Position numbers and translations under genes: made by a program
Part shown: positions 23,001 through 64,000 of the stretch, one piece after another
Position numbering within the stretch: position 1 is the first letter of the stretch
Layout: every line of letters starts with the position of its first letter
The notes under the pieces: model-generated
What the model was told of the DNA's origin: nothing
Databases searched by the model: none
The model's input: only the letters and a program-made list of their open reading frames with translations
DNA from: Schmidtea polychroa
Lineage: Eukaryota
NCBI GenBank assembly: GCA_044892525.1
Contig: CM097885.1
Span: 18,788,001-18,852,000 of the forward strand
Direction of reading: 5' to 3'
DNA length: 64,000 nucleotides

Positions 23001-23184
23001 AAAATCATTCTTATAAATTCTGTTTTTTATATATATGTCAATCGAAAAAAATGAAATAAAGTAATAAATGGATTGTTTTTTGTTAAACTTTTTTATTTTA
23101 TCATAATTTTTGTACCTAATTTTTAAAATAGGGCGCTTTTTATAATTTTCGCCTGGGGCGTATAATTATCTCGAACCGGCGCTG
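20016..23184 (+). mobile_element. Full-length hAT (ZMYM1/TTF-finger type) with disrupted transposase
   Basis: 8-bp TSD ATACTATT (20008-20015, 23185-23192); imperfect TIR CAGGCCCGGCTC / CAGCGCCGGTTC. Transposase split into 20527-21867, 21936-22322 and 22363-23016 (FCFFC, LDCTPD, YDNGANM, TRWE, SGERSFSKL). Confidence 0.93.
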
Positions 23185-27100: not shown

Positions 27101-28557
27101 GGCTGTAATGATAAAAGAGAGGTTAAAACGAATCCTCGTTCTCCCATTTACGTTCGGTTGCTCTAAGACGTTCAATGTACAATTACATTTAAGATCAACG
27201 CGACCCTCATCTCAACGATATCTTAGGTAGGGAAAATGGACCTAAAATGCTAATTAATTTCCCCTTTCGATTTCTTCTTTAATTTAATTTAAGTTGGCTG
27301 GAGACTTACGAAATCCAAGTTTATAAGTCTCGGTTACAGAATTGTAGTTCGTATGTTTAAAGTGGAAATCCATGAGCTTAGTTTTGATAAACTACTGGTT
27401 GATACAGTAGAAGTGAGCGTTTAAAATTTTATAAATTAAACTTTTAATAGTAGTTGTTTAAATCATGCAAAGATTTAATTTAACTATTTATACCACTCTA
27501 TATTAATTCAAATATTAAACTTTTAATAGTGGTTGTTTAAATCATTCAAAGATTTAATTTAACTATTTATTCAAATATTATTTTTCATTTTTTAGAATTC
27601 TCCATTGATAATTTTTTGGCAAAATTTATGCTACTAGGACCCACTATGGGAAGCGGATGTTGCAAATTGTATGAATTTGTATTCAACTCTTTGTGAATCC
27701 CTGACCATAGTGGTTGTAAGTGGCCCTTTCATCAGCTGGTGCTCGATAGTAAGTTAAAATTTTTATCTTTTGTAGTTGCATAATTTCAGGAATGGGTCTC
27801 TAATTCCTCGGTTTTTAGTATTTCAATCATTCACGGTATTGGAGTTATTACTGTTTAGTGGAATCCAAAGTATGGCTATACTCCCAATTCGTGGGCATTT
27901 AGGAGAAATTTCGGGGATTTATGGTGGTTTCAGGATTTTACTGATCTGTGCCACAGGAATTTAAAGTGAAAATTGGGACTCGAGTTTTTCTGAGTAGTCC
28001 CCTTCTAGAAATTCCTTAATATTACCGGTAAGATTCTTTTTGTGATTAGAATGGTTTCGTAAACAAAATTTTTGATTTTATTAAATACATTTTCGCTTTC
28101 GTTGATTCTTATTTAAGTAATTTTGTTTGACGTAAATTAATAATTATCGAATAATTTTGTTAACTCCTCATGAGAACCTATATAGTTAGTAATCACGACT
28201 TGTTATTACTCCTTACTTTTGGTCCTACTGGGTGGGTATTCCGATTCAGACCGTCACTTTCGGGGACTAGGTCCCGTGGCTTACATGCGATCTACTTCTG
28301 GGGTAACAAGGGTTAAATTCATATGGGTGAGATAGTTTTTATCGAAAGATTAGAGTTTCTACTGACATGGTCGATGGCGATTGGCTCGTGTAGGGGAGAG
28401 TATGTGCCACCTATTCGGTCAGTTAGGAGTAGTTCGTAGGGGGTAACCCTTGGTTTGCAGGGTTGTTACTAATAATAGAAGCGGTATTATTGGTCTAACT
28501 TTGCTATGAGGGAAAGAAAAAATCGATACTGTCGGTTTTGAACTTTCCTATTAATAG

Positions 28558-29452
28558 TGTTGGGGTTCAACAAGAGAGGCACAAAAATGAGGTGAAAATT
28601 GACAAAAACACCAAATTCAGAATAAAAATTTAAAGTACAAAATATTAATTAAAAATCAAAAATTTTAAAAAAATGAATATTTTCTGGGGGAAACTGGTAT
28701 GGGCGGATGCTAAATAATGAGACGAGTTCAGCTATAATAAAATAAAATCAATGGGGGTCCCTAAAAGGAATAAATTACAAAAAACAAAAATTAATTAAAA
28801 ATTAATTAACTAATGGAAAACCCGAGCTAATGGGAAACCCGAGCTATTGGAGAACCCGAGCTAATGGGAAACCCGATACAATGGAAAACCCGAGCGAATT
28901 GAGAAATCCAATTTCGGGAAGGCAATTAATTTAGCCGGAGAAATCTAATTTTGGGAAGGCAATTAATTTAGCCGGATAAAAAGTAAAAAGCGCCGTCAAA
29001 CAAATTCCATTCAATTAAATTAGATCTCCAAGAGGAAGCCCGGGGGGAAATAGGACCAAAGATAATTGGCAAAAATAAAGTCAATTATTAAACGAGTATA
29101 AAAGCAACTGGCAAGAAAACAAAATGCCAGTTGGTCGAAGAAAAGAAAATAGAAGTTTGAAGAGAGCGAAAAGGGAAATATTAAAGTTAGTAGAAATTAA
29201 ACCATTTAAAAATCGAACGTACCAGAAAGGGACATCTCCCGTTGGAAGATCTACCCCTGCGTGAGATTTGTTAATAAATTGAAAAGTGCAGACAAAACCT
29301 GATTGTATCAAGTGTGAGTAAACTAATACAAGTGTAAAAGTGTAACTGCATCAGTGTCAATAAAGATTTTGTGTTGGGTTATTTATTTATTTATTTGCAA
29401 AAGAACACAAAGGAGTCAGACCGTAGTACCGACTTACATTAAAAACCCAACA
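28558..29452 (+). repeat. 5' LTR (895 bp)
   Basis: TGTTGGGG...CCCAACA; five 17-bp repeats (28811-28895); TATAAAA at 29097; AATAAA at 29359. Confidence 0.97.
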
Positions 29453-29456
29453 TATT

Positions 29457-29474
29457 TGGTGAGCCCGACGTGAT
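29457..29474 (+). promoter_or_regulatory. Primer binding site, tRNA-Trp
   Basis: TGGTGAGCCCGACGTGAT is complementary at 17/18 positions to the animal tRNA-Trp 3' end as recalled (ATCACGTCGGGGTCACCA). Confidence 0.85.
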
Positions 29475-29843
29475 CAAAAGTCGGTGAAAATTTGTTGAAA
29501 TTGTGATAATATTTGAGTGATACCGAAGATTAAAAAGATCGGTGAAAATTTGTTGAGATTAGTAAAGTATCGGAAAAATTTGGAAAAAGATAATAATTAA
29601 ATAAATAAATATTGAAGTGAAACGTTTATTTGAAAGTGGTGAACATTTATTTGAGAATTATTAAAGTGGTGATTTTATAATTGAAGCAAAGTGGAAAAAT
29701 TTGTAACGATTGATTGTTGAAAAGTCAAAATTAAAACGAAAGGAAAATTTTGTAATTGTAACACTTTGAATTTTAGACGAGTAAAGCCTGTGTTGACACG
29801 ATCATTTTATAAATTGAGAAGCCAAACACTAATAGAGAATTTA

Positions 29844-32800
29844 ATGAGTACCCAAAGACTAACCAATAATACAAATAACAACGACGAAACACCTGTGTCC
29901 ACGGTGGGCAACGGCAAGGAAGGCAATGATTATGCGAGTTGTCAAAAACTACCTGTGGATCAGTACGGTGGAGATCCGCTGGAATTTGTCGATTTTATGG
30001 CAGATTACTATATGTATGCGACGGCCTATGGATGGAGCCAATCGATAATGGTGCAAAGATTACCGCTATACCTAAAAGGAGCAGCCAGAGAAGCGTGGCA
30101 ACAAATTGATAAAAGAATAGTAGCAAATGACTGGACCAAGTTGAAAGACGCGTTAGCCACGAAATTAATCGGAGTGGATATCAAACGGATAATGCGACAG
30201 AAATTCTATAACCGCGTACAAAAGCCAGAGGAATCGGTAAGTGAGTTTGCTTATCATTTATCAACTCTTGCAGAGAAAGCGTTCGAAGTGAAACCAGAAC
30301 AGGCCGAGATGGCAAAGCAGGTAAAAGAATTATTGCAGGATCAATTCTTGTCAGGAGTAAAGAAAGAAATTAAAAAGGCTCTATGCTATGTTGATTTTAA
30401 TGACTTTGATGAATTGATCAAAAAGGCAATGAAAATTGAGCTAAATTTAAAAAGCACACAGTCAAAATCAGAGTCGTTTGCAGTCATCTCAGGCGCAAGC
30501 GAAAGATCAGTAACCCCAATTAGAAACAATCGTTTTCAACAAACAAGTAGTCCATCACCAAAATTTAGATCCAAATTTGAGTCGAACAAGTCAACAGATA
30601 TTCAAATAGATGGAAAGGAAGGTCCCATCCAATGTAGTCATTGCCAAAGGATTGGACACCATGTTAACCAATGCTGGTTTAAAAATAGAGTACAGAGAAG
30701 CCCAATTCCGATTCAGTGTGATAATTGCCAAAGAATGGGACATGACAGCAATCAATGCTGGTTCAAAAATAATGTACAACGGAGTCCAAGGCAAATGTGG
30801 TCTGATTGGTTAAAAGGAAATGGTGCGAAAAGTTTCACTAAAGCGAACATTAATGAGCCGAGAACTAATGATAACTTACAATGCTTTAATTGCGGAAGAA
30901 AAGGGCATGTGTCACGAAATTGTTTTCCAAGGTCAAGATCAACATCAACATCACCATCACCGCAGAGAGATAAAGTAAATCTACAAGGACAAATTCAATG
31001 TCATTCATGCAGAAGTTATGGACACATGGCTAGATCATGTCCAAGAAATATGGATAAATTCCAAAGACCCATATTAAAGAAATCGATTAGGTTTCAGAGT
31101 GACAAACCGCAGATGGATAATGTAGCTTTTATTCAGCCAGATAATTTTAATGAAAGAATTGAAAACGAAGTGAGAGAAATGGGTCGACGTTTGGATCGAT
31201 TGATGTCAAAGTTTGAATCAGAAGAGGACTACAATAATCACATGATGTATGAGTCGCAAGAGGAATTGAATGAAAAAGAGTCGAAAAGGAGAGTTATAAA
31301 AGATGATTTAGAAAGTGAAAAAGCAACAATGATAATGACCAGAATCGAAAAACTAATTGGAAATAATGAAATAGAGTCGGCTAAAGTGATCAAATCGTTG
31401 AGAGAATTAAGTCAAATATCTTTGAGTATGAGAAAGATAAAAAGTGTAATTAGCTTGTGCGTTAACTACTATAATATGAATCCAAAGTATAAAGAAGAAA
31501 TTAAAGAATTAATGAAAATATTTGGAAAAGCTTTGAGAGAGAAAACAGGGTTAGATTCCATCTTGGTGGAAGTAGTAAACGAGATTGATAAAAGTGTATT
31601 ATGTTGTCGTTGTGAGGCAAATGATTGTGTAAATGATTTAAAGAATAAATTAAAAGAAAAAAAGGAAGGATGCATGATAGAGTTGAGATTTAATGAGAGA
31701 TTGTTAGAAAATGACGAATTTTTAGTAGATTGTGGATTTATACCAGGGAATACAAATGAATTAAAAATGGAAAATGTAATTACTAGTGATGAAATAATGA
31801 GTAGTAAAATAATAGACAAAAGGAATTCAAGGGAGATATTAGAGGAATTAAATGATGCGTTATATATTGGAGATGAAGATGAAATCGATGAGAAGTTACA
31901 GATTATTGAGAAATTAGAAATGGAGGACAACGATAAACTAAAAATAGTGAATATAATACGACCATATTTACATGTGAAAACCAGATATGCCAAGTTATTA
32001 AGAAGTTTATTGCAAAGATTGGGCAAGGAGCTCAGAAAGGCAAGAGTAGAGTTAAAGCCATTTTTGATAGCATTAGATTATGAGGGATATGGCAAAACGG
32101 AATATGTAGACGAGCATTGGTGTGCAAAGGTCCGAAAATTGCGGAAGAGAGCGGCTGAAACGCTGGGAAAAGATGGAATTATTATAGTAATGTACAAAGG
32201 TGAAGAACTTGACGATGATGAATACCTATATGATTGTGGGTGTGTACCACAAGAGCTGGATGAAAACGGATATTTGATCCGAGATGGACGAGTGGGATAT
32301 TTAGTGAACCATATAGTCGTAGTAAAAGGAGTGAGTTTAGAAGTAAATATTGAGTCTAACAAGCCTGACACAGAGGAACAAGATGAAAAAGTTAAGGGAA
32401 ATAAAGAAATTGATGAAATCGTTAGTGATAATGAGCAAAAAGATCCTGATAACAAAGATCAGTCCACAGAACCAGACGTACAAGGAGAGCCACTTGTACC
32501 TGAAGGCGAAATAAATGGTGAAATCAAAAATAAGAAAGTTAGAACTTTATATGAAATAAAGAAATATTTAGTGAGGCTAGAACAGGACGTCGACGAAACT
32601 AAGAAAATGTTGAAACATCTCGTTAAAGCAGTATATCCAATGTTCGACATAGAAGTAGAGGTAGATGATGAACTGAAAGAAATAGTTAAAGAGATGAAGA
32701 ATAGGCTTCCTGAAGTGATGCAGAAATTTGGCGAAGAGAATACATTTTGCGAGAGATCAGTAATCGAAAATTTGGCAAAAAATGAAATTAATAAGGAGGT

Positions 32801-34022
32801 TATAATAATAGCTTTAACTTATGTTGTTTTAGAAATTGGAACGCATACGTTCGCAAGGTCAGACAAGTTAGAAAATTTGATAGACATCGCTGCCCGGCTA
32901 GTAAACGAATATTTAATGAGCTGGGTAAACGAAAAAGGTGGTTGGAAAACACTGTGTTCATCTCTAACAGAAAAGAAAAATGAGAAGCAAGAAATGAGTC
33001 CACCCCAAAGACGAGTAAATGAAAGAGTTAAGCCAGAACTAAGAAAAACTATGATATTTCCATGGGCGATGTTTATGGTGATTACGTTTTGTGCAATAAT
33101 TACACAGACATCATCTTTAGTTGCGTACGATTGTTCCCAAACTGAAATGGGAAAAGTTTATTCGGTAGTAGATATGTCGGAATGCCCAGGTGCGTATCCG
33201 AGCAGTTTAAAAATAGAAAATGACGTAAAATATTATGTGTATCAAGAGTCTGATCTGCGAAGAACTCAAGTGAGAGAGTGTATTGTCAAACATACAACAT
33301 TTGTATTCTATTGTGGTAAATGGAGCCATACGTCACTCATAAAAATGCATGCGATACCTAGGCCAGTCGAGGTGCTTCCAGAAAACTGTCTAGCAGCATT
33401 TCAAACAGGAGAATTAAAAATAAGTCCAGAAATTCGTTTAAAGGCAAAATTGAACCATAGAATACGAGAAACAATAATTGTAAAGGGAGTTATGAAAGCA
33501 AATGGCGACTGTGAAGGTGAACCATATAAAATGAACGGTAAAATTATTCAGCAAACAGTGGTGCTAGAAGAATATCTCACGGAGTTGAGAGAGTTCGAAG
33601 GAGCTTTCGATGATGATACGGGAAAATTACAAACTCATCCATTCTGTAATATGAAACAAACACATTGTCAAACAGGGGAATCGATTCTTGTTTATAATGT
33701 AGAAACAAATAAGTGTAATTTAGCGCACTTAAAAACTATGAACTTTAAAGAGCTAGTAGGAGAACAGTTTAGAGATAAACCAGATAATTTCAATATGAAT
33801 TATAGACCAAATAATACCATTAAATCAACCCCAGTATGGACAAAGCAAATGGGAACAGTTTTAATGTCTACGTTACCAAGCATGTGCAGGTTTAATTGGA
33901 ATTTACGTTATTATGATAACGGCAAAGGTGGTAGTGTCGCAAATGTTGTCAGTACATCGAATATACGTAATATCGGGATGGTCATGGAAATTAGTTATTG
34001 GTTGTATTCCATTGTTGGCTAG
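29844..34022 (+). CDS. gag: ORF1 polyprotein: Gag (capsid, 4 CCHC knuckles) - 2x(helical + ubiquitin-like) - Bcl-2-like - signal/TM - N-terminal half of a chuvirus-type glycoprotein
   Basis: First ATG at 29844. LKGAAREAW and QKPEESVSEF capsid motifs; CX2CX4HX4C at 30633, ~30717, 30882 and 30999; WVNEKGGW at 32922; AYDC at 33123; YCGKWSH. Confidence 0.9.
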   Translation: MSTQRLTNNTNNNDETPVSTVGNGKEGNDYASCQKLPVDQYGGDPLEFVDFMADYYMYATAYGWSQSIMVQRLPLYLKGAAREAWQQIDKRIVANDWTKLKDALATKLIGVDIKRIMRQKFYNRVQKPEESVSEFAYHLSTLAEKAFEVKPEQAEMAKQVKELLQDQFLSGVKKEIKKALCYVDFNDFDELIKKAMKIELNLKSTQSKSESFAVISGASERSVTPIRNNRFQQTSSPSPKFRSKFESNKSTDIQIDGKEGPIQCSHCQRIGHHVNQCWFKNRVQRSPIPIQCDNCQRMGHDSNQCWFKNNVQRSPRQMWSDWLKGNGAKSFTKANINEPRTNDNLQCFNCGRKGHVSRNCFPRSRSTSTSPSPQRDKVNLQGQIQCHSCRSYGHMARSCPRNMDKFQRPILKKSIRFQSDKPQMDNVAFIQPDNFNERIENEVREMGRRLDRLMSKFESEEDYNNHMMYESQEELNEKESKRRVIKDDLESEKATMIMTRIEKLIGNNEIESAKVIKSLRELSQISLSMRKIKSVISLCVNYYNMNPKYKEEIKELMKIFGKALREKTGLDSILVEVVNEIDKSVLCCRCEANDCVNDLKNKLKEKKEGCMIELRFNERLLENDEFLVDCGFIPGNTNELKMENVITSDEIMSSKIIDKRNSREILEELNDALYIGDEDEIDEKLQIIEKLEMEDNDKLKIVNIIRPYLHVKTRYAKLLRSLLQRLGKELRKARVELKPFLIALDYEGYGKTEYVDEHWCAKVRKLRKRAAETLGKDGIIIVMYKGEELDDDEYLYDCGCVPQELDENGYLIRDGRVGYLVNHIVVVKGVSLEVNIESNKPDTEEQDEKVKGNKEIDEIVSDNEQKDPDNKDQSTEPDVQGEPLVPEGEINGEIKNKKVRTLYEIKKYLVRLEQDVDETKKMLKHLVKAVYPMFDIEVEVDDELKEIVKEMKNRLPEVMQKFGEENTFCERSVIENLAKNEINKEVIIIALTYVVLEIGTHTFARSDKLENLIDIAARLVNEYLMSWVNEKGGWKTLCSSLTEKKNEKQEMSPPQRRVNERVKPELRKTMIFPWAMFMVITFCAIITQTSSLVAYDCSQTEMGKVYSVVDMSECPGAYPSSLKIENDVKYYVYQESDLRRTQVRECIVKHTTFVFYCGKWSHTSLIKMHAIPRPVEVLPENCLAAFQTGELKISPEIRLKAKLNHRIRETIIVKGVMKANGDCEGEPYKMNGKIIQQTVVLEEYLTELREFEGAFDDDTGKLQTHPFCNMKQTHCQTGESILVYNVETNKCNLAHLKTMNFKELVGEQFRDKPDNFNMNYRPNNTIKSTPVWTKQMGTVLMSTLPSMCRFNWNLRYYDNGKGGSVANVVSTSNIRNIGMVMEISYWLYSIVG

Positions 34023-37000
34023 ATTCTTTATTACAGATCATCAATTTAAAGAAATGGCAAGAGTAAGGGCACAATTAAGAAATGGCCGGAAAAGTGAGGA
34101 ATCGACGTGTCAGTCGGAAGATAAAAACGACAATCATAATGATGATAACAACAACGGGGAATCGGAGCATAAATGCTTTCGAAAAAGTGCAATAAAGAGT
34201 AAAGTAGAGCCAGAGTCCAGGTTCTTGCTTGAACCAATGCCAAAATTAAGCGGGATTGATACTCTTAGTAGATGGTATACCCCGACATTTAGACCAACAG
34301 CACCAGTATATCCAAGTGAAAAACTAAAAGAGATGAAATCGGTCGATAATATCACAATAGAATTAGAGAAGATTGAACCAACGAGTGCTGAAATTGAAAG
34401 AAAGAATATGCTTGGTCTACCATGCAGCTATGCACTAATGACAACAGTAGTAGGAGGAAAACAACCTCGAATAAACATACAGTTTAACAAGAGAAAAGTG
34501 GAAGCTTTATTAGACTCAGGCTCAAGTCATACTATAGTAGCGGAAAGTTTCTTGACGTATCAGGAGAAAGCCAAAATAAAACCAACGAATCACATTATTA
34601 AATCAATGTCACATAATGCACTAAATATTGTTGGAAAATTAGAAGTTAAACTTATAATTGGAGATCAAGAAATAATTCATTGGGTATCAGTGATGAGAAA
34701 AAGTCCTGTAAAATGTCTTATTGGCATGGATGTCATGGAGCAACTACGTGGAATCTCTCTTGATCTGAGAACTGGAAAACTAATAAAAGGACAAATGGGT
34801 GAAGTAGTGCCTGAAGTAGGAGAGGTATTTCTAAACCAAACATTGGAAGTACCACCAAAAAGCGAAGTAATATACTATGCAGATGTTATGAGGGTCTCAG
34901 ATGAGGAGTACATATTTGAGCCAAATCAAAAGCTGGTTGAAAAATACGATGTGCCTATGTGTGATGAAGTAGTGAAAGTTCAAAACAAGTCAGTACCAGT
35001 TAGAATAGCGAATTATAGTGCAAGATCCGTTGAAATAAAGCCCAAAACCAAATTGGGAAAATTAACAAAAATCAAATCAGAGGAAGCTCAGAAGTTACCG
35101 AGGAATATAAAAATTTATAAAGAACCTCAGATCACAAGCAAAGATTTGACGGATTTGCAAAAACAAGAATTCAGTGCATTATTAAAGAAATATAGAAATG
35201 TATTTGCAAAACATGAGTATGATCTGGGACTCACTCAGGTGATTGAGCATGAAATACCATTACTCAACGAAACCCCAATAAAATTACGGCCGTACAGAAT
35301 ACCATACATACATCAGGAAGAAAGTGATCGGCAAATCAAAGCAATGAAAGAATTCAATATAATAAGAGATAGTTCCTCACCATTCTCATCATCAATAGTA
35401 GTAGTTAAAAAGAAGGACGGTGATTTAAGATTTTGTGTTGACTATCGAAAACTGAACCAAGTAACGAGAAAAGATACATATCCTATTCCTGTTCCACAGG
35501 AAATGTTCGATCAGATGGGGGAGGTGCAATATTTTACGGTAATAGATCTTAATAAAGGATACAATCAATTTAAAGTCAAAGAGGAAGATAGAAGGAAAAC
35601 TGCATTTTCAGATGGGAAGGGTCTATATGAGTTTAACGTGTTACCATTCGGATTAACAGGAGCACCTGCTACATTTCAGAGAGGTATGAATTTTGTTTTG
35701 CGCGATATACCACATGCATTAGTGTATATTGACGATATAATAATATTTTCGAATAGTTTTCAGGAACATTTGCAGGATGTGGAAACAGTATTCAAGCGAT
35801 TGTTAGAAGCAAACTTAAAAATAAAACCCTCCAAATGTGAATGGAGAAAATCTGAAGTAGTTTATGTGGGTCATATCATTTCGCGTCGAGGTTTGCAACC
35901 AAATCCAGAAAATGTAGAGAAAATTAAGGAATATCCTATTCCCAAGGATGTAGATCAGGTTCGACAATTTCTGGGATTAGCTAGTTATTACAGAAAGTTT
36001 ATTAAAAGTTTCTCACATGTCGCACAACCTTTGAACATGTTATTGAAAAAGCAAGCAAAATTTAAATGGACAAAAGCTCAGCAAGAAGCGTTTGATAAAC
36101 TCAAAGAAAGCTTAATAAAACAGCCGATATTAAGATGTCCGAACTTTAAAAAACCGTTTATATTAATGACAGATGCCAGTAATTTCGCATTAGGCGCGGT
36201 ATTAGGACAGCAAGTAGAATGGGAAAAAGATCATGTAATTGCTTATGCCAGCAGATCATTGAAACCTCATGAGAAAAATTATTCGACAATCGAAAAAGAA
36301 ACGTTAGCATTGGTATATGGGATAACCACTTTTCGACAATACCTAGTGGGCAGAAAATTTGTTGTCTTTACGGATCACAATCCGTTACAATGGCTAATGA
36401 AGCACAGAGATTCGGCCAGTAAATTAATTAGGTGGTCAATCGCGTTACAAGAATATGATTTCGAGATAAAGTATCGTACAGGGAAGTCAAATGCAAATGC
36501 GGATGCTATGTCAAGAATACCAGTGGAAAATAATGTTGATCAGGATGAGAAAAATTGCGAAAATACAATATTTATGGCAATAAAAACCGCAAATAATATA
36601 GAAAAATTACAAGATGATCAAGAAAATGACGAGGAATTAAATCAGTTACGCCAACATGCTGTCACAATCAAAAAGGAGAGTGACTGGAAACATATTGCCG
36701 AAGAGAACCATAAATACATTATTCATGATGGTTTGTTAAAATGTGTACAAAATGAAAATTTGTTAATTATTGTTCCGACAAAACATCGAAAATCATTACT
36801 GTTGTTGTATCACGATGGAGCATTAGGAGGGCATTTATCAGCGCGAAAAACATTATCAAGATTGAAACAGAAATATTATTGGAAAACGATGGAACAAGAT
36901 GTCAGACAATGGTGTCATACGTGTGAGATATGCCTAACAAGACGAAATACGGGACGGAAAATAAAAGTTCCGCTTAAGCCTATGCCAGTGCCCAAGGCGC

Positions 37001-39153
37001 CAATGGAAATGACAGCAATGGACATCGTTGGTCCATTGCCGGAAACAACAAATGGCAAAAAATACATTATCGTTTTTTGCGATTATCTTACTAAATGGCC
37101 AGAAGCTTATGCAATGCCAAATCAGAAAGCAGAAACAGTTGCGAAAATATTTGTGGAGAATATTATTTTTCGATACGGAGCACCAAAGAAATTACTTACA
37201 GATCAAGGAACAAATTTTCAGAGTGAATTATTTAAATCAATCACAGATTTATTTGGTATATTGAAACTTAGTACCTCACCATATCATCCACAGACAGATG
37301 GTCTAGTTGAAAGATTTAATGGGACACTAATTAATATGATATCATCCTATGTAAATAGGAAACAAAAGGATTGGGATTTATTCATTAAACCATGCTTATT
37401 TGCATACCGGAATGCAGTAAATGAAAGCACTGGAGAAACACCCTTTTATCTCATGTATCTACGACGAAACAATATGCCAGTCGATCTAGAATTTCAGTCG
37501 CCTATTTCCCAATATATGGATGTGTCAGATTATAAAATAGCTATGCATGAAAGACTACAGTTAGTATGGATCCAAGCTGGACTTAACATAAGGCATCATC
37601 AAGAAGCGTATAAAGAATGCTATGATAAACGCGCACGGGCGCATGACATTAAAATTGGAGATCTCGTGTATATAAACAAACCAGAACCAACAAAAGGCTT
37701 GTCAACGAAATTGCAACGACCGTTTAAAGGACCATATCTAGTGTGTGATACGACAGAGACTAACTTAAAATTGCGTCCACAAAACAATAAAAAGGCTGGG
37801 ACAATCATCGTTCATGTAAATAGATGCAAAAAGATAATAGAAGATGAATCACGTTATCCATTGAGATCAAAGCCAAATAAAGATGCAGGGAACCCAGTAA
37901 TTAAACAAAAGTTTACAAAAAACCCTGCTCCATTGAGTTACATCAATAAAGTTTTATTGATTACAACAGTAATGATTATCAATATAATGTCAGTAAATGC
38001 AGTGAGAGTATTCCCGTTATATGCAACTAATACAGTTGTATTATTAGACAAAGTTCATATTTATTCAACATGTACTCAAATAGTTTGGGTTTATTATGCT
38101 GGAGGAGCAGAAGAAATAGAGATAAATAATCTAATAAACTATTTTGAACCCCCAATAAAATTGAACAGCACCAAAAATATTTATGTGGCTAGACAATTAA
38201 CAATGAATTATGAATACCCTTGGTTAATTACGCAATTGGATTCGAAAAGTAATAATACAAAAATACAAAATCTTATACGCATTAATATTTGGACAAAGAG
38301 ATTACATAATCGAGTATCAATTGAACCACTGGTAAATGGAATTGACATATATTGGGAACCCCAGGAATCCCAACAAGTAAAAGCAGTTTTTCAAAATTAT
38401 GCGATAGATACATTGAATAGCAGAAAACCCTTTATAAAGTATGCAAATTTAAAATTACATCATAACTATAATATTCTGATTCACTATTATGAAAAATCTT
38501 TATACGAAAACGGAACTGAAATTGATAGTCAATGGATCAGAATACACTCTAGTCAACATATGATACGATTAGTTAATGAAACAAATCGGGTTACTTTTCA
38601 TATTTTCAATCAATTAGTGAATGTTACCCGACAAGCGGAGCCCAATCAAAAAGCTATTTTATATTATTATGGAAAAATTCAATCGATATTAAATGAAAAA
38701 AATAAATCTCAAATATTAACTTTTCGTCAACGTTCACCAATATCGACGTCAAAATTTGTGTTCATTAAAATAAAATACTATAGACGTTCTCTATTTTCAA
38801 ATCTATGGCAATTAACTTTAGTGGAAAATAAAATTGTGCAAATTCCATCTATTAACTCGCAGTATGGAAATCGAAACAAATCAAATCAGTCCAACCAAAC
38901 CCCTAGCTCTGCCAACGTAATCATCTTTTCTAGCATCAATGAGTCAATGACTAATAACGAAACCATATCGTCATTAAAAACTGACAGTGAAATTGTGTGT
39001 GTAACATTATTAATAACTACTCTCATTATAACAATCTCTCTCATTATTCTCATTATCATTGTGCTAATTGAATTTCGAACAATACCCAAACCTTCTACGA
39101 ATCGATCCGAGATTGCGAGACCTTGGATCGTTTATGAAGAAACATTTGTGTAG
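33865..39153 (+). CDS. pol: ORF2 polyprotein: glycoprotein C-terminal TM and tail - protease - RT - RNase H - integrase - FN3-like type I membrane protein
   Basis: Frame open from 33865 (track ATG at 33913). LLDSGS (D at 34513), YIDD (35725), TDAS, HHCC, D-D-E and GPY motifs; second signal peptide at 37951-38001; TM at 38992-39069. Confidence 0.95.
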   Translation, partial: CLRYQACAGLIGIYVIMITAKVVVSQMLSVHRIYVISGWSWKLVIGCIPLLARFFITDHQFKEMARVRAQLRNGRKSEESTCQSEDKNDNHNDDNNNGESEHKCFRKSAIKSKVEPESRFLLEPMPKLSGIDTLSRWYTPTFRPTAPVYPSEKLKEMKSVDNITIELEKIEPTSAEIERKNMLGLPCSYALMTTVVGGKQPRINIQFNKRKVEALLDSGSSHTIVAESFLTYQEKAKIKPTNHIIKSMSHNALNIVGKLEVKLIIGDQEIIHWVSVMRKSPVKCLIGMDVMEQLRGISLDLRTGKLIKGQMGEVVPEVGEVFLNQTLEVPPKSEVIYYADVMRVSDEEYIFEPNQKLVEKYDVPMCDEVVKVQNKSVPVRIANYSARSVEIKPKTKLGKLTKIKSEEAQKLPRNIKIYKEPQITSKDLTDLQKQEFSALLKKYRNVFAKHEYDLGLTQVIEHEIPLLNETPIKLRPYRIPYIHQEESDRQIKAMKEFNIIRDSSSPFSSSIVVVKKKDGDLRFCVDYRKLNQVTRKDTYPIPVPQEMFDQMGEVQYFTVIDLNKGYNQFKVKEEDRRKTAFSDGKGLYEFNVLPFGLTGAPATFQRGMNFVLRDIPHALVYIDDIIIFSNSFQEHLQDVETVFKRLLEANLKIKPSKCEWRKSEVVYVGHIISRRGLQPNPENVEKIKEYPIPKDVDQVRQFLGLASYYRKFIKSFSHVAQPLNMLLKKQAKFKWTKAQQEAFDKLKESLIKQPILRCPNFKKPFILMTDASNFALGAVLGQQVEWEKDHVIAYASRSLKPHEKNYSTIEKETLALVYGITTFRQYLVGRKFVVFTDHNPLQWLMKHRDSASKLIRWSIALQEYDFEIKYRTGKSNANADAMSRIPVENNVDQDEKNCENTIFMAIKTANNIEKLQDDQENDEELNQLRQHAVTIKKESDWKHIAEENHKYIIHDGLLKCVQNENLLIIVPTKHRKSLLLLYHDGALGGHLSARKTLSRLKQKYYWKTMEQDVRQWCHTCEICLTRRNTGRKIKVPLKPMPVPKAPMEMTAMDIVGPLPETTNGKKYIIVFCDYLTKWPEAYAMPNQKAETVAKIFVENIIFRYGAPKKLLTDQGTNFQSELFKSITDLFGILKLSTSPYHPQTDGLVERFNGTLINMISSYVNRKQKDWDLFIKPCLFAYRNAVNESTGETPFYLMYLRRNNMPVDLEFQSPISQYMDVSDYKIAMHERLQLVWIQAGLNIRHHQEAYKECYDKRARAHDIKIGDLVYINKPEPTKGLSTKLQRPFKGPYLVCDTTETNLKLRPQNNKKAGTIIVHVNRCKKIIEDESRYPLRSKPNKDAGNPVIKQKFTKNPAPLSYINKVLLITTVMIINIMSVNAVRVFPLYATNTVVLLDKVHIYSTCTQIVWVYYAGGAEEIEINNLINYFEPPIKLNSTKNIYVARQLTMNYEYPWLITQLDSKSNNTKIQNLIRINIWTKRLHNRVSIEPLVNGIDIYWEPQESQQVKAVFQNYAIDTLNSRKPFIKYANLKLHHNYNILIHYYEKSLYENGTEIDSQWIRIHSSQHMIRLVNETNRVTFHIFNQLVNVTRQAEPNQKAILYYYGKIQSILNEKNKSQILTFRQRSPISTSKFVFIKIKYYRRSLFSNLWQLTLVENKIVQIPSINSQYGNRNKSNQSNQTPSSANVIIFSSINESMTNNETISSLKTDSEIVCVTLLITTLIITISLIILIIIVLIEFRTIPKPSTNRSEIARPWIVYEETFV

Positions 39154-39585
39154 TAAGACATAAATACTTTGCATGCAAAAATTGATAAAGTAGTAGTAGT
39201 AATATAGTATAAATATTTTATGGATATTATTAATATTTTTTTTCTTTATGGATATGATCAATATTTCATTTTATTTTACTTGTGAATCTGCACTTTTCAA
39301 TGTCAACGGAAAGAATCAATTTGATTGGTTAGCGCTGTGTTAAGGGGGAGAAAAAAACGGGGTTAAGGGAATTTTCATAAGGGTATTAAAAGAGGGTAAA
39401 ATCCATTAAACTCCATTAATTTTCAAAAAAATATATATATCAACAATTAACTAAACGGTAATTATTATTATTATTATTATTTATACAGCTAGTAGCTGGG
39501 ACAGTATCCTTCGGATACTTCATCTCAGCCCTAGTTTTAAAAGTAAAGTAAATTCAAACGTTAAATTATAACTATTTTAGCAAAA

Positions 39586-41046
39586 ATGGAACAAGTACAA
39601 TGGACAAGATCCACCTACGACAGTTACTTCAAGATGCAGAAAAATCATGCCAGCCAACAATTATACGAAATCAATGAAAATTTACAAATTCCAAATTATT
39701 TGAGGATAGATGACAGAAGAATGAAGATACGAATGTTTACAATAAGGAGAAATTCAGAATTGAAATTGACAGATGAAATTGAGTTGTCTCGGAAGGAAGA
39801 ATATCACATACACGTGATCAGAGGTACAGTGGAAGTGCTGAAGAACGATAATACAATATGGTGGCAACTTCGAAAATTCACATCGTGGAAGCTGCAGAAG
39901 GACTCCATGTGGAGAACACTACGAGCAGCGAATGAGGAGACAACGTTGGTGGTGGAAATCAGAACTGAGAATGAAGCGGATGAGGTACCACAGATGCATC
40001 TAATTGAAGGAGAAGACCCAATGTTATTGAAAATTTCAAAGGAAATGTTGAAAAAGAAAATGTCGTTTCTCAGAAAAGAAATGGATCTAGAAGAAATCCG
40101 CAGTAGAATATTATTCATTGATGCTGAATATGGCACATCAGAGCAAGGGAAAATGGTCCCTTTAGCAATAGCAATTATGAATTATTATGGGAAAGTAGTA
40201 AAAGATGTATACCTCACTCCAAGAGGAAAAATCCGACATTTTAATTCAAGGATCCATGGAATTACAGAAGTGGCCAGCAGGAACCAATGTGATCAATATG
40301 TGGCAATGAAAGAGATACAACGCTTGACAGTAGGCAAAATATTGATCGGCCATGATTTGCATGCAGAATTACAATACTTGGGGATATGGATTGAACAATT
40401 GTACGGCATTCGAGATCTAGCAGCAGCACCAATACTTCAGAACATGGGAGTAACCATAAGGGGAGAATGGTTCAAACTACAAACAGTGGTGAAAGAAATA
40501 TGTGGAGAACAGACTCAGATGAGTATTCATTCGGCTCTCGAGGACGTGAAAAGTATACGCAAGGTATACCAGAAAGTGGAAAGTCAATGGATTGATGACA
40601 TACCGATGCCCAAAAATCAACCGTCAAAGCGATATTCGTGGGATGAATATAAGAAGCTTCGGGAAATTGAATCAACATCAACTGCAATACCAGAAAAACT
40701 AACGCAAATTCCAATTGAAGATGTAATGGAATCTGAAGAAATTGATTTAACATTCGAGGAGAATGTGACGATGGATAGTGAAAATCCATTGATTCAACTG
40801 AAGTGGGCCAATGAATCATTCTTAGAAATTGCGGAAGGTGTCGCATTAATGGTAAGCATACCGATGATAAGGATACATCCAACACTTGAATATGGTCCAA
40901 TGCCAGAATGTAGAAAATCCAAAAAGAGAAAAACAACTTCGAACATTGATGTCGGAGACACTGTCAATGGTGTAGTATATGAACGCGAAGAAACAATAAT
41001 ACGATATCGGCATGAAACGAAACGATTAGAAATAAAGATGGATTAA
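39586..41046 (+). CDS. ORF3: cupin-like N-terminus + DEDDh 3'-5' exonuclease (REX4/ISG20-like)
   Basis: ExoI FIDAEY (40120), HGIT, ExoII-like LIGHDLHAEL, ExoIII HSALED; intact 486 aa. Confidence 0.85.
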   Translation: MEQVQWTRSTYDSYFKMQKNHASQQLYEINENLQIPNYLRIDDRRMKIRMFTIRRNSELKLTDEIELSRKEEYHIHVIRGTVEVLKNDNTIWWQLRKFTSWKLQKDSMWRTLRAANEETTLVVEIRTENEADEVPQMHLIEGEDPMLLKISKEMLKKKMSFLRKEMDLEEIRSRILFIDAEYGTSEQGKMVPLAIAIMNYYGKVVKDVYLTPRGKIRHFNSRIHGITEVASRNQCDQYVAMKEIQRLTVGKILIGHDLHAELQYLGIWIEQLYGIRDLAAAPILQNMGVTIRGEWFKLQTVVKEICGEQTQMSIHSALEDVKSIRKVYQKVESQWIDDIPMPKNQPSKRYSWDEYKKLREIESTSTAIPEKLTQIPIEDVMESEEIDLTFEENVTMDSENPLIQLKWANESFLEIAEGVALMVSIPMIRIHPTLEYGPMPECRKSKKRKTTSNIDVGDTVNGVVYEREETIIRYRHETKRLEIKMD

Positions 41047-41659
41047 TTTTTATATATTGTATTTATAAAATAAATAATTGTGAACTCGATTTTGTCTCAT
41101 GTATTTATTGGCAGCGCATCAGTTAGACCCCAAAATAAGAATAAATAAGTAAATAATTGAGAGTAAATAAATAATCAAATAAATAAATAAAACTATTATT
41201 GTGTATAACAACAAACACATTTCCAATTGTCGGGGTTTGGCTACCCTGGACAACAATTGGAAATGAGTGGTTGTAAAGAGCCACATAAACAGGTTGCGAC
41301 AAATCATAACAATTTATAATTTATTAGACAAAAAGGAATTGATAAATATTTTCAAATCATAATAGAAATTTTCGATATTTATAATTCATTTAAACAAATT
41401 TAAAATATTAATTCATAAAAATAATATATATATATTGCCAAAGAAAATATTGAATTCACTGACTCAGCCACTTGTAGGCGAAAAGATAACAAACATTTTT
41501 ACCAAAAAAAAATTATAACATAATAACAGTAAGAGACCTTGAACAAATACTTGGAAATGTTGTTTGAAAGCAAGTGATAAAATAAATTTATTCAATATAA
41601 AATCACACTTTCCATTTCATTTTATTTAAATTGTTATAGATAATTATGGAATATCTTAC

Positions 41660-42033
41660 CTGAAATATCACATAAAACATTAAGATCGCGCAGCCTGAAT
41701 TAACTCGATATTTACAAATAATTAATGCACTTCCCATTAATTGACAAATAATATTTATTAGTAGAAAAAATTCAATAATCAAAGAATTCATTTTCCCATA
41801 AACTGGAAATAAAATCTATTTGTTCACTCCACGGGGTAATTAATTGATATCCATCTTCAATAAAGGTCGACACTAAACAAACTCGAGCAATATGAGGTAA
41901 GAATCGACGTGTCTTTCTAATTACCTAGCATACAACTGAAAATTGAAAAGAAAATATACAAATTTACTATATCAGCATAATTCTCTAAATTTGTCAAACA
42001 ATCCTTTTTATTATTTCGAATAGAATCAACCAT
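41660..42033 (-). CDS. SURF4: SURF4/Erv29-like gene (N-terminal part), antisense inside the LTR element; exons 42033-41968 and 41924-41660; one +1 frameshift near 41795
   Basis: Spliced read MVDSIRNNKKDCLTNLENYADI|VIRKTRRFLPHIARVCLVSTFIEDGYQLITPWSEQIDFISSLW-MNSLIIEFFLLINIICQLMGSALII, versus SURF4 as recalled ([45 protein letters not shown]). 43-nt GT-AG intron. Confidence 0.85.
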
Positions 42034-43584
42034 TAAGAAATTTACAACGTAGTAATTTAAAATTAAAATTAGTCTAATTATTCAAGTTTATAAACTCGAT
42101 AAGTGATTGTATTTTCTTTTCTGTAAAAATATAATTTTCTGTTATTACATTTTAATAAAAAAATAAAATAAATGGCATACCGATTTCTTTACACTTTGTT
42201 CATTTTCCAAGAACTCTCAGAAAATAGTTTGGCATTTTATCTGCAACAATATCAAAGCTCATTATATAGTTTTATAACGAGCCTAAGTGAGCAAGCGAAC
42301 GGTTCGTGGTCTTATCTGTTGGCGATATGTGTCGAGTCCAGTGTCTTTCTAAACTGAAATTAGCCGTCTCTAAAATCGCTTGAAGTTCTGCAATAAAAGT
42401 CAATGACTAGTTCCAATTTGATGGCTGTCGTGTTAAAATGAAATGACTTAATCGCCTATCACACACATACACGAGAGAAGAGGGAAAGTGACACACCTCC
42501 TAGTATGAAAGAAGTCAAAACAACAAAACAAATTAAATTACCCTTGAATTAGTCCAAATTGTAGATGTGTAACAAATTCAATCGGATGATTGGTGGATTT
42601 AATTATCATTTTCCTTTTGGAATTTTCCTATCTCCCGTCAAAAGTGCAAACCAATTTCTTAAATAATTTCGGTTTTAGATCTGAAATTGAAAAACAAATT
42701 GAATTACCCTCAACTGCAATTGAATTAGTTGATTGGATCAAAAAGAGAAAAACCGCAACTACAATTGAATTAGTTAAATAAATTTTTTTCAACAAATTCC
42801 AAAAACGTGATATATTTTGTTTTAATGGCATGCTAATATTTCATGAAGGAGGCAGTGAATAACAAAACAAAAATGTCAAATTATAATTCAGAATGATTTT
42901 CTTAGAGATTATTGGAAAATATAAAATAATAAAATATTGTTTTGGTTGACATTTAAGAAACAGAATTGTCAAAAGCAGCTGAATAAATATGAAAAATAAA
43001 TTTTTTTCAACAAATTCCACCATGTTCAACTAAGTTGAATAACAAAATAATTTTTTTTAAATTATTATTAATATTATTATTATATCAAACTGATTTTCTC
43101 ATTAATTTCTTTTGTTTCTCTTTTGGAAAAAAATTCTGTGAAATAATAGTTTAAAATAAATAGCTAAGCAACTATCTGTGATGAACCCAACTTGATATCA
43201 TATTGTATACACTGCACAGTGCATTTCATCATGTACAAACAAATATTATGATGCCCGATACACAACTGTCACCAATATTACAATTATTATCATCATCATT
43301 ATTAATTATTATTAGTATTGTTATCGGTAGTATTATTATCGTCATTATTATTGTTATTAGTATTAACATTATTATTTATATTAAGTAGTGTGAGGATGAT
43401 GGGGGGGGGGGGGGGAGTCGAATAAGGAAATTTCAAAATAAAATATCTCAGATTTAAAATCATTGGCAAAGGCAATAGCTAAAATAGGTAGATAGCAATC
43501 CATTTTTATTATTATTATTATTATTGTTATTACTGTATGGTAAATTTGACTTATTATATGCAGATTCGAGGTCGAATCTAAATT

Positions 43585-43595
43585 AAAGGGGGAGA
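43585..43595 (+). promoter_or_regulatory. Polypurine tract
   Basis: AAAGGGGGAGA, 2 nt upstream of the 3' LTR. Confidence 0.9.
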
Positions 43596-43597
43596 TA

Positions 43598-44459
43598 TGT
43601 TGGGGTTCAACAAGAGAGGCACAAAAATGAGGTGAAAATTGACAAAAACACCAAATTCAGAATAAAAATTTAAAGTACAAAATATTAATTAAAAATCAAA
43701 AATTTTAAAAAAATGAATATTTTCTGGGGGAAACTGGTATGGGCGGATGCTAAATAATGAGACGAGTTCAGCTATAATAAAATAAAATCAATGGGGGGTC
43801 CCTAAAAGGAATAAATTACAAAAAACAAAAATTAATTAAAAATTAATTAACTAATGGAAAACCCGAGCTAATGGGAAACCCGATACAATGGAAAACCCGA
43901 GCGAATTGAGAAATCCAATTTCGGGAAGGCAATTAATTTAGCCGGAGAAATCTAATTTTGGGAAGGCAATTAATTTAGCCGGATAAAAAGTAAAAAGCGC
44001 CGTCAAACAAATTCCATTCAATTAAATTAGATCTCCAAGAGGAAGCCCGGGGGGAAATAGGACCAAAGATAATTGGCAAAAATAAAGTCAATTATTAAAC
44101 GAGTATAAAAGCAACTGGCAAGAAAACAAAATGCCAGTTGGTCGAAGAAAAGAAAATAGAAGTTTGAAGAGAGCGAAAAGGGAAATATTAAAGTTAGTAG
44201 AAATTAAACCATTTAAAAATCGAACGTACCAGAAAGGGACATCTCCCGTTGGAAGATCTACCCCTGCGTGAGATTTGTTAATAAATTGAAAAGTGCAGAC
44301 AAAACCTGATTGTATCAAGTGTGAGTAAACTAATACAAGTGTAAAAGTGTAACTGCATCAGTGTCAATAAAGATTTTGTGTTGGGTTATTTATTTATTTA
44401 TTTGCAAAAGAACACAAAGGAGTCAGACCGTAGTACCGACTTACATTGAAAACCCAACA
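43598..44459 (+). repeat. 3' LTR (862 bp)
   Basis: Matches the 5' LTR apart from two fewer 17-bp repeats, one extra G and one A/G substitution that I could see. Confidence 0.97.
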
Positions 44460-44487
44460 ATAGTAACGTTTTATTGATAATCATGTT

Positions 44488-44845
44488 ACTAATAATAATA
44501 ATAATAATAATGATAATAATAATAATAATGATAATAATAATAATAATAATAAAATAATAATAATAAAATAATACTAAAATAATAGTATTAGTAATAATAA
44601 TAATAATGGTAATGATAATAATAATGATAATAACAATAATACTAATAACAATAGTACTATTAATAATAACTATAATGATAATTATGGTAATAGTAATGGT
44701 AATAATAATGATAATGCTAATGATAATGCTGGGAAAAATAATAGTATTAATAATAATAATAATAATGATAATAATAGTAATAATAGTAGTAATATGATAA
44801 TAACCATAATAATAATTATAGCAATAGTAATGGTAACAATAATAG
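44488..44845. repeat. Degenerate (AAT)n low-complexity tract
   Basis: aataataat/gataat/agtaat runs. Confidence 0.9.
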
Positions 44846-63127: not shown

Positions 63128-63895
63128 TTATCTGCTAGTAGACCGTCTTCCACTTGTTGATCGTCTAGTGTAAGAAGTTTTCGAATATCGGGAACTTTTA
63201 TATGTCATCCTAGGAGATCTACTAGTAGATCTTCGATAAGATCTACTTGTTGATCTTCTTTTCATTGTTCTTCTTCGTGATCGACTACGCGATCTACTGG
63301 TTGAACGCCTGGGGCCCCTTCTTTGTGCCTTGAAAGGTGAACGCCGTCCATCATGGCTTCTAGATCTTCTATGGTAATCTCTACCATTTCGTCTATTCGA
63401 TACTTTACCCATGTAGTAACCAGGTGTTGGAGTATGAGCTTTTTTAGTTATACTGTAATCAACGCGAATAACTTTTCCATCGAGATTCATTCCACTAGCC
63501 TCTTTCACCGCTCTTGTAGCAGATCCCAAGTCTTCATAATTAATAAAACCGTATCCCATGGACTCGTGATGATATTTATCCATAATCAATTTAACCGATG
63601 CAATGCGACCGAATTTCTCAAATGTTTCCCATAAAGTTTGCTCTTCCGTTCTTTTGTTCAAACCAAAAACGCCAATGCATGTACAAGGTTCAGGTCGTTC
63701 ATTCATACGGTTTCTACGATTATTTCGAGATGGAGATCTTGAATAAGATCTAGAATAATTTCTATCGTTTGACGTTGTTCTGCGACGAGTAATTCTATCA
63801 TTTGAAATACTTCTGGATCGAGACTTCGAAGACCTTTCACTGGAACGACTATCTCTTTCACTATAATCCGAACTATATTTACCACTTTTAGTCAT
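63128..63895 (-). CDS. TRA2: Transformer-2-like SR splicing factor (RS-RRM-RS), single-exon CDS
   Basis: CIGVFGL and GYGFINY RNP motifs, plus the TRA2 signature IRVDYSITKKAHTPTPGYYMG. Confidence 0.9.
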   Translation of the reverse strand: MTKSGKYSSDYSERDSRSSERSSKSRSRSISNDRITRRRTTSNDRNYSRSYSRSPSRNNRRNRMNERPEPCTCIGVFGLNKRTEEQTLWETFEKFGRIASVKLIMDKYHHESMGYGFINYEDLGSATRAVKEASGMNLDGKVIRVDYSITKKAHTPTPGYYMGKVSNRRNGRDYHRRSRSHDGRRSPFKAQRRGPRRSTSRSRSRSRRRTMKRRSTSRSYRRSTSRSPRMTYKSSRYSKTSYTRRSTSGRRSTSR

Positions 63896-64000
63896 AATAA
63901 ATTATAACTCAATTAAATATGATTGTCAAAAATGACAAATATATTTAAACAAACTTTTATTTTATGTAATTCAAATGTAAATAAAATTTATTATAAATAT

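Follow-up and report, generated by a model that had tools for sequence, protein, structure and literature searches.

A probably recent and defective insertion of a Burro-like, env-carrying Ty3/gypsy family in Schmidtea polychroa

Which kind of mobile element occupies positions 28558-44459 of the 64,000-nucleotide stretch of Schmidtea polychroa DNA analysed here (assembly GCA_044892525.1, contig CM097885.1, positions 18,788,001 to 18,852,000 of the forward strand; hereafter the window), and which of the many functions assigned to it does it encode? An earlier note, made from the letters of the sequence, had described a virus-like Gypsy element bounded by long terminal repeats (LTRs). It was said to encode Gag, two ubiquitin-like (Ubl) repeats, a Bcl-2-like domain, a chuvirus-type glycoprotein, protease, reverse transcriptase, RNase H and integrase (PR-RT-RH-IN), an FN3-like membrane protein, a DEDDh exonuclease and an antisense SURF4-like gene. 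Our analysis indicates, with a probability of roughly 0.85, that the unit was inserted very recently and is defective, and that it belongs to an env-carrying Ty3/gypsy family of a Burro-like lineage with a high copy number and recent activity.

Boundaries, copies and selection

The unit is delimited by the following features.

28554-28557 (no strand): left target-site duplication ATAG; the same 4 bases stand 3' of the 3' LTR at 44460-44463
28558-29452 (+): 5' LTR, 895 bp, termini TGTTGGG...CCCAACA (alignment with the 3' LTR, sequence read)
29457-29475 (+): putative primer-binding site TGGTGAGCCCGACGTGATC, a TGG-initiated 19-mer 4 nt 3' of the 5' LTR (direct read)
43585-43595 (+): polypurine tract AAAGGGGGAGA, 2 nt 5' of the 3' LTR (direct read)
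43598-44459 (+): 3' LTR, 862 bp (alignment with the 5' LTR)

The bounds first given for the LTR-bounded unit, 28558..44459, are sharp, and the alignment of the LTRs, their TG..CA ends and the ATAG duplication all bear them out. Such ends together with a 4-bp duplication are what is expected of Ty3/gypsy elements (Metaviridae; 4-6 bp), and 4-bp target-site duplications were likewise present in 6 of 7 other copies checked. When aligned end to end, the two LTRs show 1 substitution and 2 indels between them, one of a single base and the other of 34 bp, the latter within a 17-bp tandem repeat. The interior is occupied by three long sense-strand open reading frames (ORFs), at 29721-34022 (ORF1), 33865-39153 (ORF2) and 39565-41046 (ORF3). 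An AT-rich array with a periodicity of 9 bp, located at 44450-44842, continues for ~390 bp through the flank outside the element; its first member (61% identity according to the repeat finder) begins at 44450, in the final bases of the 3' LTR.

The genome searched comprises 781 Mb and has four very large contigs. Searching it with the LTR yielded 2,699 first-look candidates, 40 of which were scored, and all 40 were 99-100% identical. Ten further copies, chosen from LTR pairs, were compared with the window. The internal length between LTR pairs ranges from 9.2 to 27 kb. As whole elements, the window copy measures 15.9 kb and the fuller copies 16.0-17.6 kb. From gag to RT, one copy has a stop-free single frame of 2,176 aa and another one of 2,026 aa, and in the same genome the outside homologues described below led to related elements whose frames run without interruption for 3,329-3,437 aa. 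A sister family in this genome shares 44% amino-acid identity over 1,243 alignment columns and has the identical module order.

By their 3' halves the copies fall into two subfamilies. This division and the variable internal length imply that recombination and nesting occur in the family, and both would also be expected of a composite artefact, in which nested insertions or mis-assembly had brought different elements together between two LTRs. Such an artefact is highly improbable, however, because 6 near-full-length copies, which occupy different loci and each have a target-site duplication of their own, show the modules in the same colinear order, because single frames cross the module boundaries, and because contigs of four public runs, whose type was guessed as RNA, cover most of the element including the internal region (29 of 30 bins in run X1). 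One of the runs showed loose ends with poly-A, at positions 31663, 32980 and 39431.

Three copies have a pol-less deletion in common (33845 to 38290). Two of these share identical flanks and therefore represent a single locus that was duplicated, and a target-site duplication of its own marks the third. The pol-less derivative, which is a trans-mobilised one, was therefore mobilised at least twice. The pol-less copies L014/L010 and L018/L013 lie about 3.86 Mb apart on contig 1 with identical flanks and the same ATAT duplication, so that the element-bearing locus was either segmentally duplicated or assembled twice.

The earlier note had proposed dN/dS (omega) per module as a check. With every unique variant among the 10 other copies entered a single time, omega was 0.22-0.50 in all modules, the accessory ones included, with approximate p-values: gag 0.42 (p 7e-4), Ubl1 0.31 (p 4e-4), Ubl2 0.36 (p 0.015), acidic linker 0.50 (not significant), Bcl-2-like domain 0.22 (p 0.002), env N-terminus 0.30 (significantly below 1), pol 0.22 (p 2.5e-16), the region after integrase (37732-39150) 0.41 (p 0.001) and ORF3 within a subfamily 0.50 (p 0.075). 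Between subfamilies, pN/pS of ORF3 is 0.20-0.23 at a pS of 0.39-0.51. Comparison with the sister family shows an acidic linker that is poorly conserved and a Bcl-2-like part that is well conserved. Both the omega values and the persistence of the modules at 44% identity indicate that they are maintained and not decaying, and the reading of a virus-like, env-carrying Gypsy lineage is upheld.

Modules of the Gag-Env-Pol frame

Within ORF1 and ORF2 of the window copy the following features were recognised, those of the Ubl/Bcl-2 region of ORF1 partly from models computed with AlphaFold2 (AF2).

29844-31160 (+): Gag, ORF1 residues 42-480, Retrotrans_gag and four CCHC zinc knuckles (Pfam PF03732, E 2.4e-6, and PF00098, E 9e-9; knuckles read in the translation)
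31257-31784 (+): helical bundle and Ubl domain 1, ORF1 residues about 513-688 (AF2, Foldseek, weak Pfam ubiquitin match)
31818-32333 (+): helical bundle and Ubl domain 2, ORF1 residues about 700-871, motif DDDEYLxDCGC (AF2, Foldseek, outside homologues)
32523-32993 (+): Bcl-2-like helical domain, ORF1 residues about 935-1091 (sub-cut-off Pfam PF00452, profile against PDB sequences, AF2 model)
33003-33878 (+): signal/anchor segment (about 33003-33077) and N-terminal third of a class III-type Env (PF24664, E 4.9e-25; hydrophobic segment)
33877-33882 (+): junction of a private ~875-bp frameshifting env deletion (comparison with fuller copies, junction read)
33883-34458 (+): transmembrane segment (TM) and cytoplasmic tail of Env in the ORF2 frame (translation; hydrophobic at ORF2 residues 6-24)
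34459-37332 (+): Pol, with protease at 34459-34749, RT at 35404-35880, RNase H at 36067-36456 and integrase at 36772-37332 (Pfam)
37948-39153 (+): post-integrase membrane protein, in frame with pol (hydrophobic segments, N-glycosylation sequons)

In fuller copies and sister families these parts follow one another in a single frame: Gag with its knuckles, two units of helical bundle plus Ubl, an acidic linker, the Bcl-2-like domain, a signal/anchor segment, the Env ectodomain with its TM, and PR-RT-RH-IN. In this family the same frame ends with a second signal-anchor, an ectodomain that is heavily N-glycosylated judging by its sequons, and a TM. The four hydrophobic segments thus lie in alternating positions, and the 11 sequons are confined to the last ectodomain.

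The window copy departs from this arrangement in env, which matches Monjiviricetes_fusion (PF24664) at profile positions 5-213 of 653 only. All 6 near-full-length other copies carry ~875 bp extra at 33877-33882. A string of 40 nt spanning the deletion junction occurs once genome-wide, in the window itself, and contigs of the public runs that have loose ends at the junction run on into the undeleted form. Because the deletion falls within env and alters the frame, the glycoprotein of the window copy is truncated and two of its ORFs overlap. The full env of another copy matches PF24664 with an E of 1.8e-89 (best stretch at profile positions 264-633), a profile match from which its fold is predicted, and possesses a signal peptide (SP) and a TM. 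Of the chuvirus-type glycoprotein claimed at first, the Monjiviricetes/chuvirus-type match therefore stands, and its presence as a whole protein in the window does not. An env-deleted variant that propagates itself was also considered and rejected, the junction string being unique in the genome.

With its env deletion and with pol out of frame with gag, the window copy does not read as a working element; its lack of a full Env and the displaced frame must therefore reflect an error of reverse transcription or damage after insertion. These observations also bear on a rival reading along the lines of the earlier note, namely a currently infectious, exogenous-capable planarian retrovirus that manipulates apoptosis, RNA defence and secretion. 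A complete env under selection in the family, giant uninterrupted frames in the genome and near-identical LTR pairs would all suit such an agent, and for Burro elements this idea has already been put forward in the account given by PMC6431247. However, particles, cell-to-cell spread and effects on host pathways are for this agent predictions from sequence, the window copy is defective, and the SURF4 piece (see below) is inert. Moreover, high copy number and target-site duplications fit retrotransposition in the germline or in neoblasts equally well, and we therefore regard a currently infectious virus as doubtful.

For the Pol part, Pfam detected RVP (4.9e-6), RVT_1 (6e-33), RT_RNaseH (9e-40), Integrase_H2C2 (8e-20) and rve (6e-12) in ORF2, with PR, RT, RH and IN in this order at residues 199-295, 514-672, 735-864 and 970-1156, which is the Ty3/gypsy order and agrees with the first description. 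A dUTPase between PR and RT was considered and discarded, as Pfam returned no match. The identification of Gag likewise held, given its two Pfam matches.

To the Ubl modules several lines of evidence apply. The AF2 alignment for the Ubl/Bcl-2 region consisted of the outside homologue rows plus two sister families from the same genome, and it yielded models in which both modules comprise a helical bundle and a beta-grasp fold, with pLDDT values of about 85-96 for module 1 and 77-91 for module 2. In Foldseek searches the best PDB matches to the Ubl model were linear di-ubiquitin, ISG15, FAT10 and the tandem Ubl of OASL (E 5e-6 to 1e-4), and viral ubiquitin-like proteins were also reached. The two Ubl repeats recognised by the earlier note are thereby corroborated. 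When ORF1 residues 481-1100 were used as query against 1.84 billion representative proteins, 11 homologues were retrieved at E<=1e-3, among them Gag-knuckle-Ubl proteins; Ubl identity in the outside proteins is 19-36%, and the motif DDDEYLxDCG is nearly invariant. A single-sequence phmmer search of PDB with the same residues gave chance-level matches alone (E 0.15-0.21). In one homologue, P0012 (2,296 aa, ENA), a single ORF encodes several proteases together with a knuckle, Ubl homology and Monjiviricetes_fusion.

Neither Ubl domain has a C-terminal Gly-Gly in the translation. Cleavage by host deubiquitinases is therefore unlikely, the role of the domains as deubiquitinase cleavage sites was rejected, and they would instead represent fixed ubiquitin signals.

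Two of the homologues have peculiarities of their own. P0012 carries several tandem aspartic-protease domains after env (Pfam, 1557-1660, 1819-1913 and 1974-2065), with a further repeat visible in the sequence. In P0002 (601 aa, MetaClust), zinc knuckles and a part 47% identical to ORF1 residues 481-637 are joined to a domain of phosphomevalonate kinase (E 1.5e-34); this protein could be a fusion derived from Gag or else the product of a chimeric gene model.

The Bcl-2-like domain was addressed with a profile built from three sequences, i.e. the window, the sister family and the C-terminus of P0006. Against PDB sequences, its best 60 matches were all Bcl-2 or Bcl-xL, with E from 1.2e-4, over the BH1-BH2 region. 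The domain retains a BH2-like GGW and is followed by a hydrophobic segment. Accordingly, the Bcl-2-like assignment of the earlier note is supported by this profile, although the Pfam match lies below its cut-off.

Downstream of integrase, ORF2 encodes a protein with a signal-anchor, an ectodomain of about 335 aa in which the 11 N-x-S/T sequons lie, and, at the C-terminal end, a strong TM followed by a short tail; its hydrophobic segments are at ORF2 residues 1362-1380 and 1717-1735. Pfam assigned no family to it, homologue searches produced one short match of 7% coverage and then none, Atlas gave sub-threshold FN3 leads only (0.85), and a single-sequence AF2 model reached a pLDDT of 36.8. The membrane protein of the first description is thus seen in its hydrophobic segments, and its FN3 character is unconfirmed by these searches.

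ORF3, the SURF4 fragment and the flanks

The region between pol and the 3' LTR contains two further features.

39586-41046 (+): ORF3, 486 aa, with a central ISG20/REXO-type 3'-5' exonuclease domain at about 40102-40602 (PDB phmmer)
41650-42091 (-): captured host SURF4 fragment from the exon-1 region, antisense, frameshifted, 442 bp (PF02077 and identity to a host locus)

When PDB sequences were searched by phmmer, residues 173-339 of ORF3 matched ISG20L2 (E 6e-11) and ISG20 (E 5.6e-8), and this homology argues for the predicted DEDDh exonuclease of the earlier note. The Exo I DxE and the Exo III HxxxxD motifs are present, and a Glu stands where ISG20 has the Exo II Asp; this Glu is kept in all ORF3 versions compared. 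FIDAE, GHDLHAEL and HSALED are invariant across ORF3 subfamilies, whose proteins are 78-81% identical, and also in P0013, the sole outside homologue of ORF3 (32% identity). P0013 passes the Pfam RNase_T threshold (PF00929); ORF3 itself has no Pfam match to exonuclease families. No usable Atlas match was obtained for the N-terminal 172 aa, for which Pfam gives DUF7881_N at an E of 0.21 only, and the N- and C-terminal parts are both without an assigned family. Among 1,483 candidate genome matches 88 were scored; ORF3 is full length and 97-100% identical in all 88, and stop-free in 82 of them.

Quite a different picture emerged for the supposed antisense SURF4-like gene and its proposed function in secretory traffic. 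PF02077 matches the minus strand in two frames, at 41775-41924 (profile positions 14-61, E 3e-13) and at 41606-41815 (positions 57-109, E 7e-7), so that positions 14-109 of 267 are covered and the coding sequence is incomplete. Window positions 41650-42091 match one of the host SURF4 loci in its exon-1 region, with 96.2% identity along 442 bp. The genome contains two host SURF4 loci spanning profile positions 13-267 and, in addition, dozens of short fragments. The fragment is present in 6 of 10 other copies, although in c2 no more than a 54% piece of exon 1 is left, and c3, c12, c13 and c15 lack it; carriers differ by 0 synonymous and 0-3 non-synonymous changes. By sequence comparison the SURF4 piece is a recently captured, inert host fragment in the 3' non-coding region of one subfamily only, and the claim of an antisense gene is withdrawn.

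A second class of repeated SURF4 fragments occupies 7 genome loci, covers for example profile positions 33-110 or 33-109 and has an open frame of 92 aa without stops, the element-borne fragments forming a separate 13-66 class. Amplification of SURF4 exon 1 thus seems to have happened on more than one occasion. In run X3, a contig of 881 nt with a depth of 67.8 aligns to window positions 41660-41849 and overlaps only the SURF4 fragment, at a depth far above that of the rest of the element in X3; its most likely source is the host SURF4 gene rather than the element.

The SURF4 fragment is what might be expected if all extra modules were passengers, that is, parts of host genes that a Gypsy element had taken up by transduction and carried along without function: it is 96% identical to the host, frameshifted, restricted to one subfamily and distinguished among carriers by non-synonymous differences only. 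For the other modules this explanation is very unlikely. The Ubl, Bcl-2-like, post-integrase and ORF3 parts evolve at an omega of 0.2-0.5, module order is kept in the sister family, Ubl and ORF3 have homologues outside the genome at the identities given above, and the exonuclease motifs are invariant.

Elsewhere in the window, frames associated with hAT transposase (DUF659, DUF4371, hAT dimerisation region) lie upstream of the element at 8904-10292, 13950-14909, 20527-21867 and 22297-23016 and are remnants of hAT DNA transposons. A 257-aa frame at 63128-63901 (-) with an RRM_1 motif (E 1.7e-16) is probably an exon of a host gene.

Known elements, proposed mechanism and significance

To place the family, we compared it with the elements whose published descriptions come closest. 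Section 7 of Arkhipova & Yushenova 2019 (PMC6431247), which summarises Grohme 2018 and Jurka 2007, describes Burro/GYPSM1 from Schmidtea mediterranea, together with a relative from Dugesia, as encoding a single polyprotein of 4,873-5,140 aa. Its order is given there as Gag with CCHC knuckles, a Ubi2/SUMO-like motif, a BCL2-like domain, env in frame and PR-RT-RH-IN. According to the same account the env lies between gag and pol and has mononegavirus-like matches, and the elements exceed 30 kb, number thousands of copies and contain MATH, BIR, ankyrin, AIR1/Smc and dUTPase motifs. Planarian Burro-type elements are de-repressed upon loss of PIWI, as reported in PMC8532177.

As far as that description goes, CCHC Gag, Ubl followed by BCL2-like, an in-frame env between gag and pol that is related to mononegavirus glycoproteins, PR-RT-RH-IN and thousands of copies are common to Burro and the element. 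Ubl followed by BCL2-like between Gag and Env was found in the element and also in the sister family; an env in frame with gag and pol was found in other copies and in related families, and not in the window copy owing to its deletion. Since the order Gag-Ubl-BCL2-Env-PR-RT-RH-IN is in print for Burro (PMC6431247), the main claim to novelty, based in the earlier note on knowing of no described element with this combination, fails. Two Ubl modules are present in the element, whereas the Burro description gives a Ubi2/SUMO-like motif, and neither the glycosylated protein after integrase nor a separate ISG20-type ORF is mentioned for Burro in section 7 of PMC6431247.

A second group for comparison are the Ty3/gypsy "errantiviruses" of GAG-ENV-POL order with an env of the type of gB from herpes simplex virus (HSV), reported from Platyhelminthes, Nematoda and Bryozoa (eLife 2026, PMC13524379). 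With these the element shares, by that account, the Ty3/gypsy backbone and a class III env between gag and pol whose ectodomain is flanked by SP/TM and TM. The parts of PMC13524379 that describe them mention no Ubl, Bcl-2-like domain, exonuclease or second membrane protein, whereas the element has all four; its main text does not once use the words ubiquitin, Bcl-2, polyprotein or fused.

Structural matches to the Ubl modules include polyproteins of pestiviruses (bovine viral diarrhoea virus, BVDV) with ubiquitin insertions and ubiquitin-like proteins of giant viruses. The ubiquitin insertions of pestiviruses are cleaved by host deubiquitinases. A ubiquitin fold within a viral polyprotein is thus shared with pestiviruses, while the Ubl domains of the element are without Gly-Gly.

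As for ORF3, its homology to ISG20 and ISG20L2 (PDB 1wlj, 7yw5) extends for about 165 residues, in which Exo I DxE and Exo III HxxxxD are kept. It differs from them as a 486-aa protein with unassigned ends, in its second Exo II acid (E, not D) and in being the gene of a mobile element, whereas ISG20 is a host antiviral gene. LTR retrotransposons of bdelloid rotifers reportedly carry extra ORF3s including DEDDy exonucleases. An extra gene for a 3'-5' exonuclease of the DnaQ/DEDD superfamily is, as far as described, common to them and to this element; the latter would by its motifs belong to the DEDDh (ISG20/REXO) branch, with H-x4-D and the Exo II Glu, and the former to DEDDy, in another phylum and another RT lineage. 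Among LTR elements, exonucleases have been described as accessory domains of the DEDDy/DnaQ-like kind (PMC5408684, PMC6338049 and PMC6431247). Our literature searches for an ISG20/DEDDh ORF or for Ubl/Bcl-2 modules in planarian retroelements returned PMC6431247 as the only relevant source, and no published description was found of the exonuclease ORF3, of the alternating membrane topology or of a glycosylated membrane protein that is joined to the end of integrase. The ISG20-type exonuclease ORF3 and the glycosylated membrane protein fused after integrase may therefore be features not described before.

Several observations weigh against assigning the insertion to an active, Burro-like family with a multi-function polyprotein. 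At 15.9-17.6 kb the element has about half the size of Burro (over 30 kb), Pfam detects no MATH, BIR, ankyrin, AIR1/Smc or dUTPase at E<=0.1, and the likeness to Burro1-4/GYPSM1 is one of described architecture alone. Most of the 10 copies examined contain stops or frameshifts. The omega p-values are rough because the compared copies share ancestry, c4 and c5 being one duplicated insertion. With respect to expression as a polyprotein, none of the four joints in contigs of the four public runs has GT..AG ends. Among the modules, the ubiquitin match (E 0.03) is under the curated Pfam cut-off, and the Bcl-2 match, which spans the full profile length, scores E 0.006/0.001 and 17.5-20 bits compared with a cut-off of 31.4 bits. 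The BH1 motif NWGR is not conserved, and the AF2 model of the Bcl-2 region, with seven helices, has low confidence (pLDDT 40-68). Finally, we infer the topology, cleavage and budding of the polyprotein, and the roles of the Ubl, Bcl-2-like and exonuclease parts, from their sequence features only.

With these points taken into account, we still favour a recent, defective insertion of a Burro-like family, and for its fuller copies the following mechanism can be envisaged. Genomic RNA driven from the LTR would be translated into a polyprotein that is inserted co-translationally and threads the membrane of the endoplasmic reticulum four times, so that Gag-Ubl-Bcl2 and Pol would be cytosolic and both ectodomains luminal. 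Signal peptidase and the protease of the element would then cut the polyprotein apart. The env signal segment could serve as tail anchor of the Bcl-2-like domain and thereby keep Gag at the Env-bearing membrane, and the Ubl domains could act as built-in, fixed ubiquitin signals for sorting or budding, plausibly of the ESCRT type. Fused ubiquitin can replace the late domain in some retroviral Gags. ORF3 might trim the ends of RNA or cDNA, or blunt RNA-based host defence by removing host defence RNAs.

Carried to its full extent, this mechanism would make the compact Burro-like family a replication-competent, enveloped, retrovirus-like agent of flatworms. Such an agent would have a polyprotein of ~3,400 aa threaded through the membrane four times in the manner of flaviviruses, Gag-linked Ubl signals for budding or sorting, a tail-anchored Bcl-2-like protein, two surface glycoproteins and a captured ISG20-type exonuclease. 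We consider this unlikely as a whole. If it were true, an exonuclease of the ISG20 type, normally an antiviral factor of the host, would process the nucleic acids of the element or degrade host substrates of small-RNA pathways or innate sensing.

Planarian Burro-type elements are among the most complex retroelements known. A compact Burro relative with many little-damaged copies may provide a more tractable model for the assembly of an enveloped, multi-function polyprotein, and the element may show what Ubl, Bcl-2-like and nuclease modules add to its life cycle.

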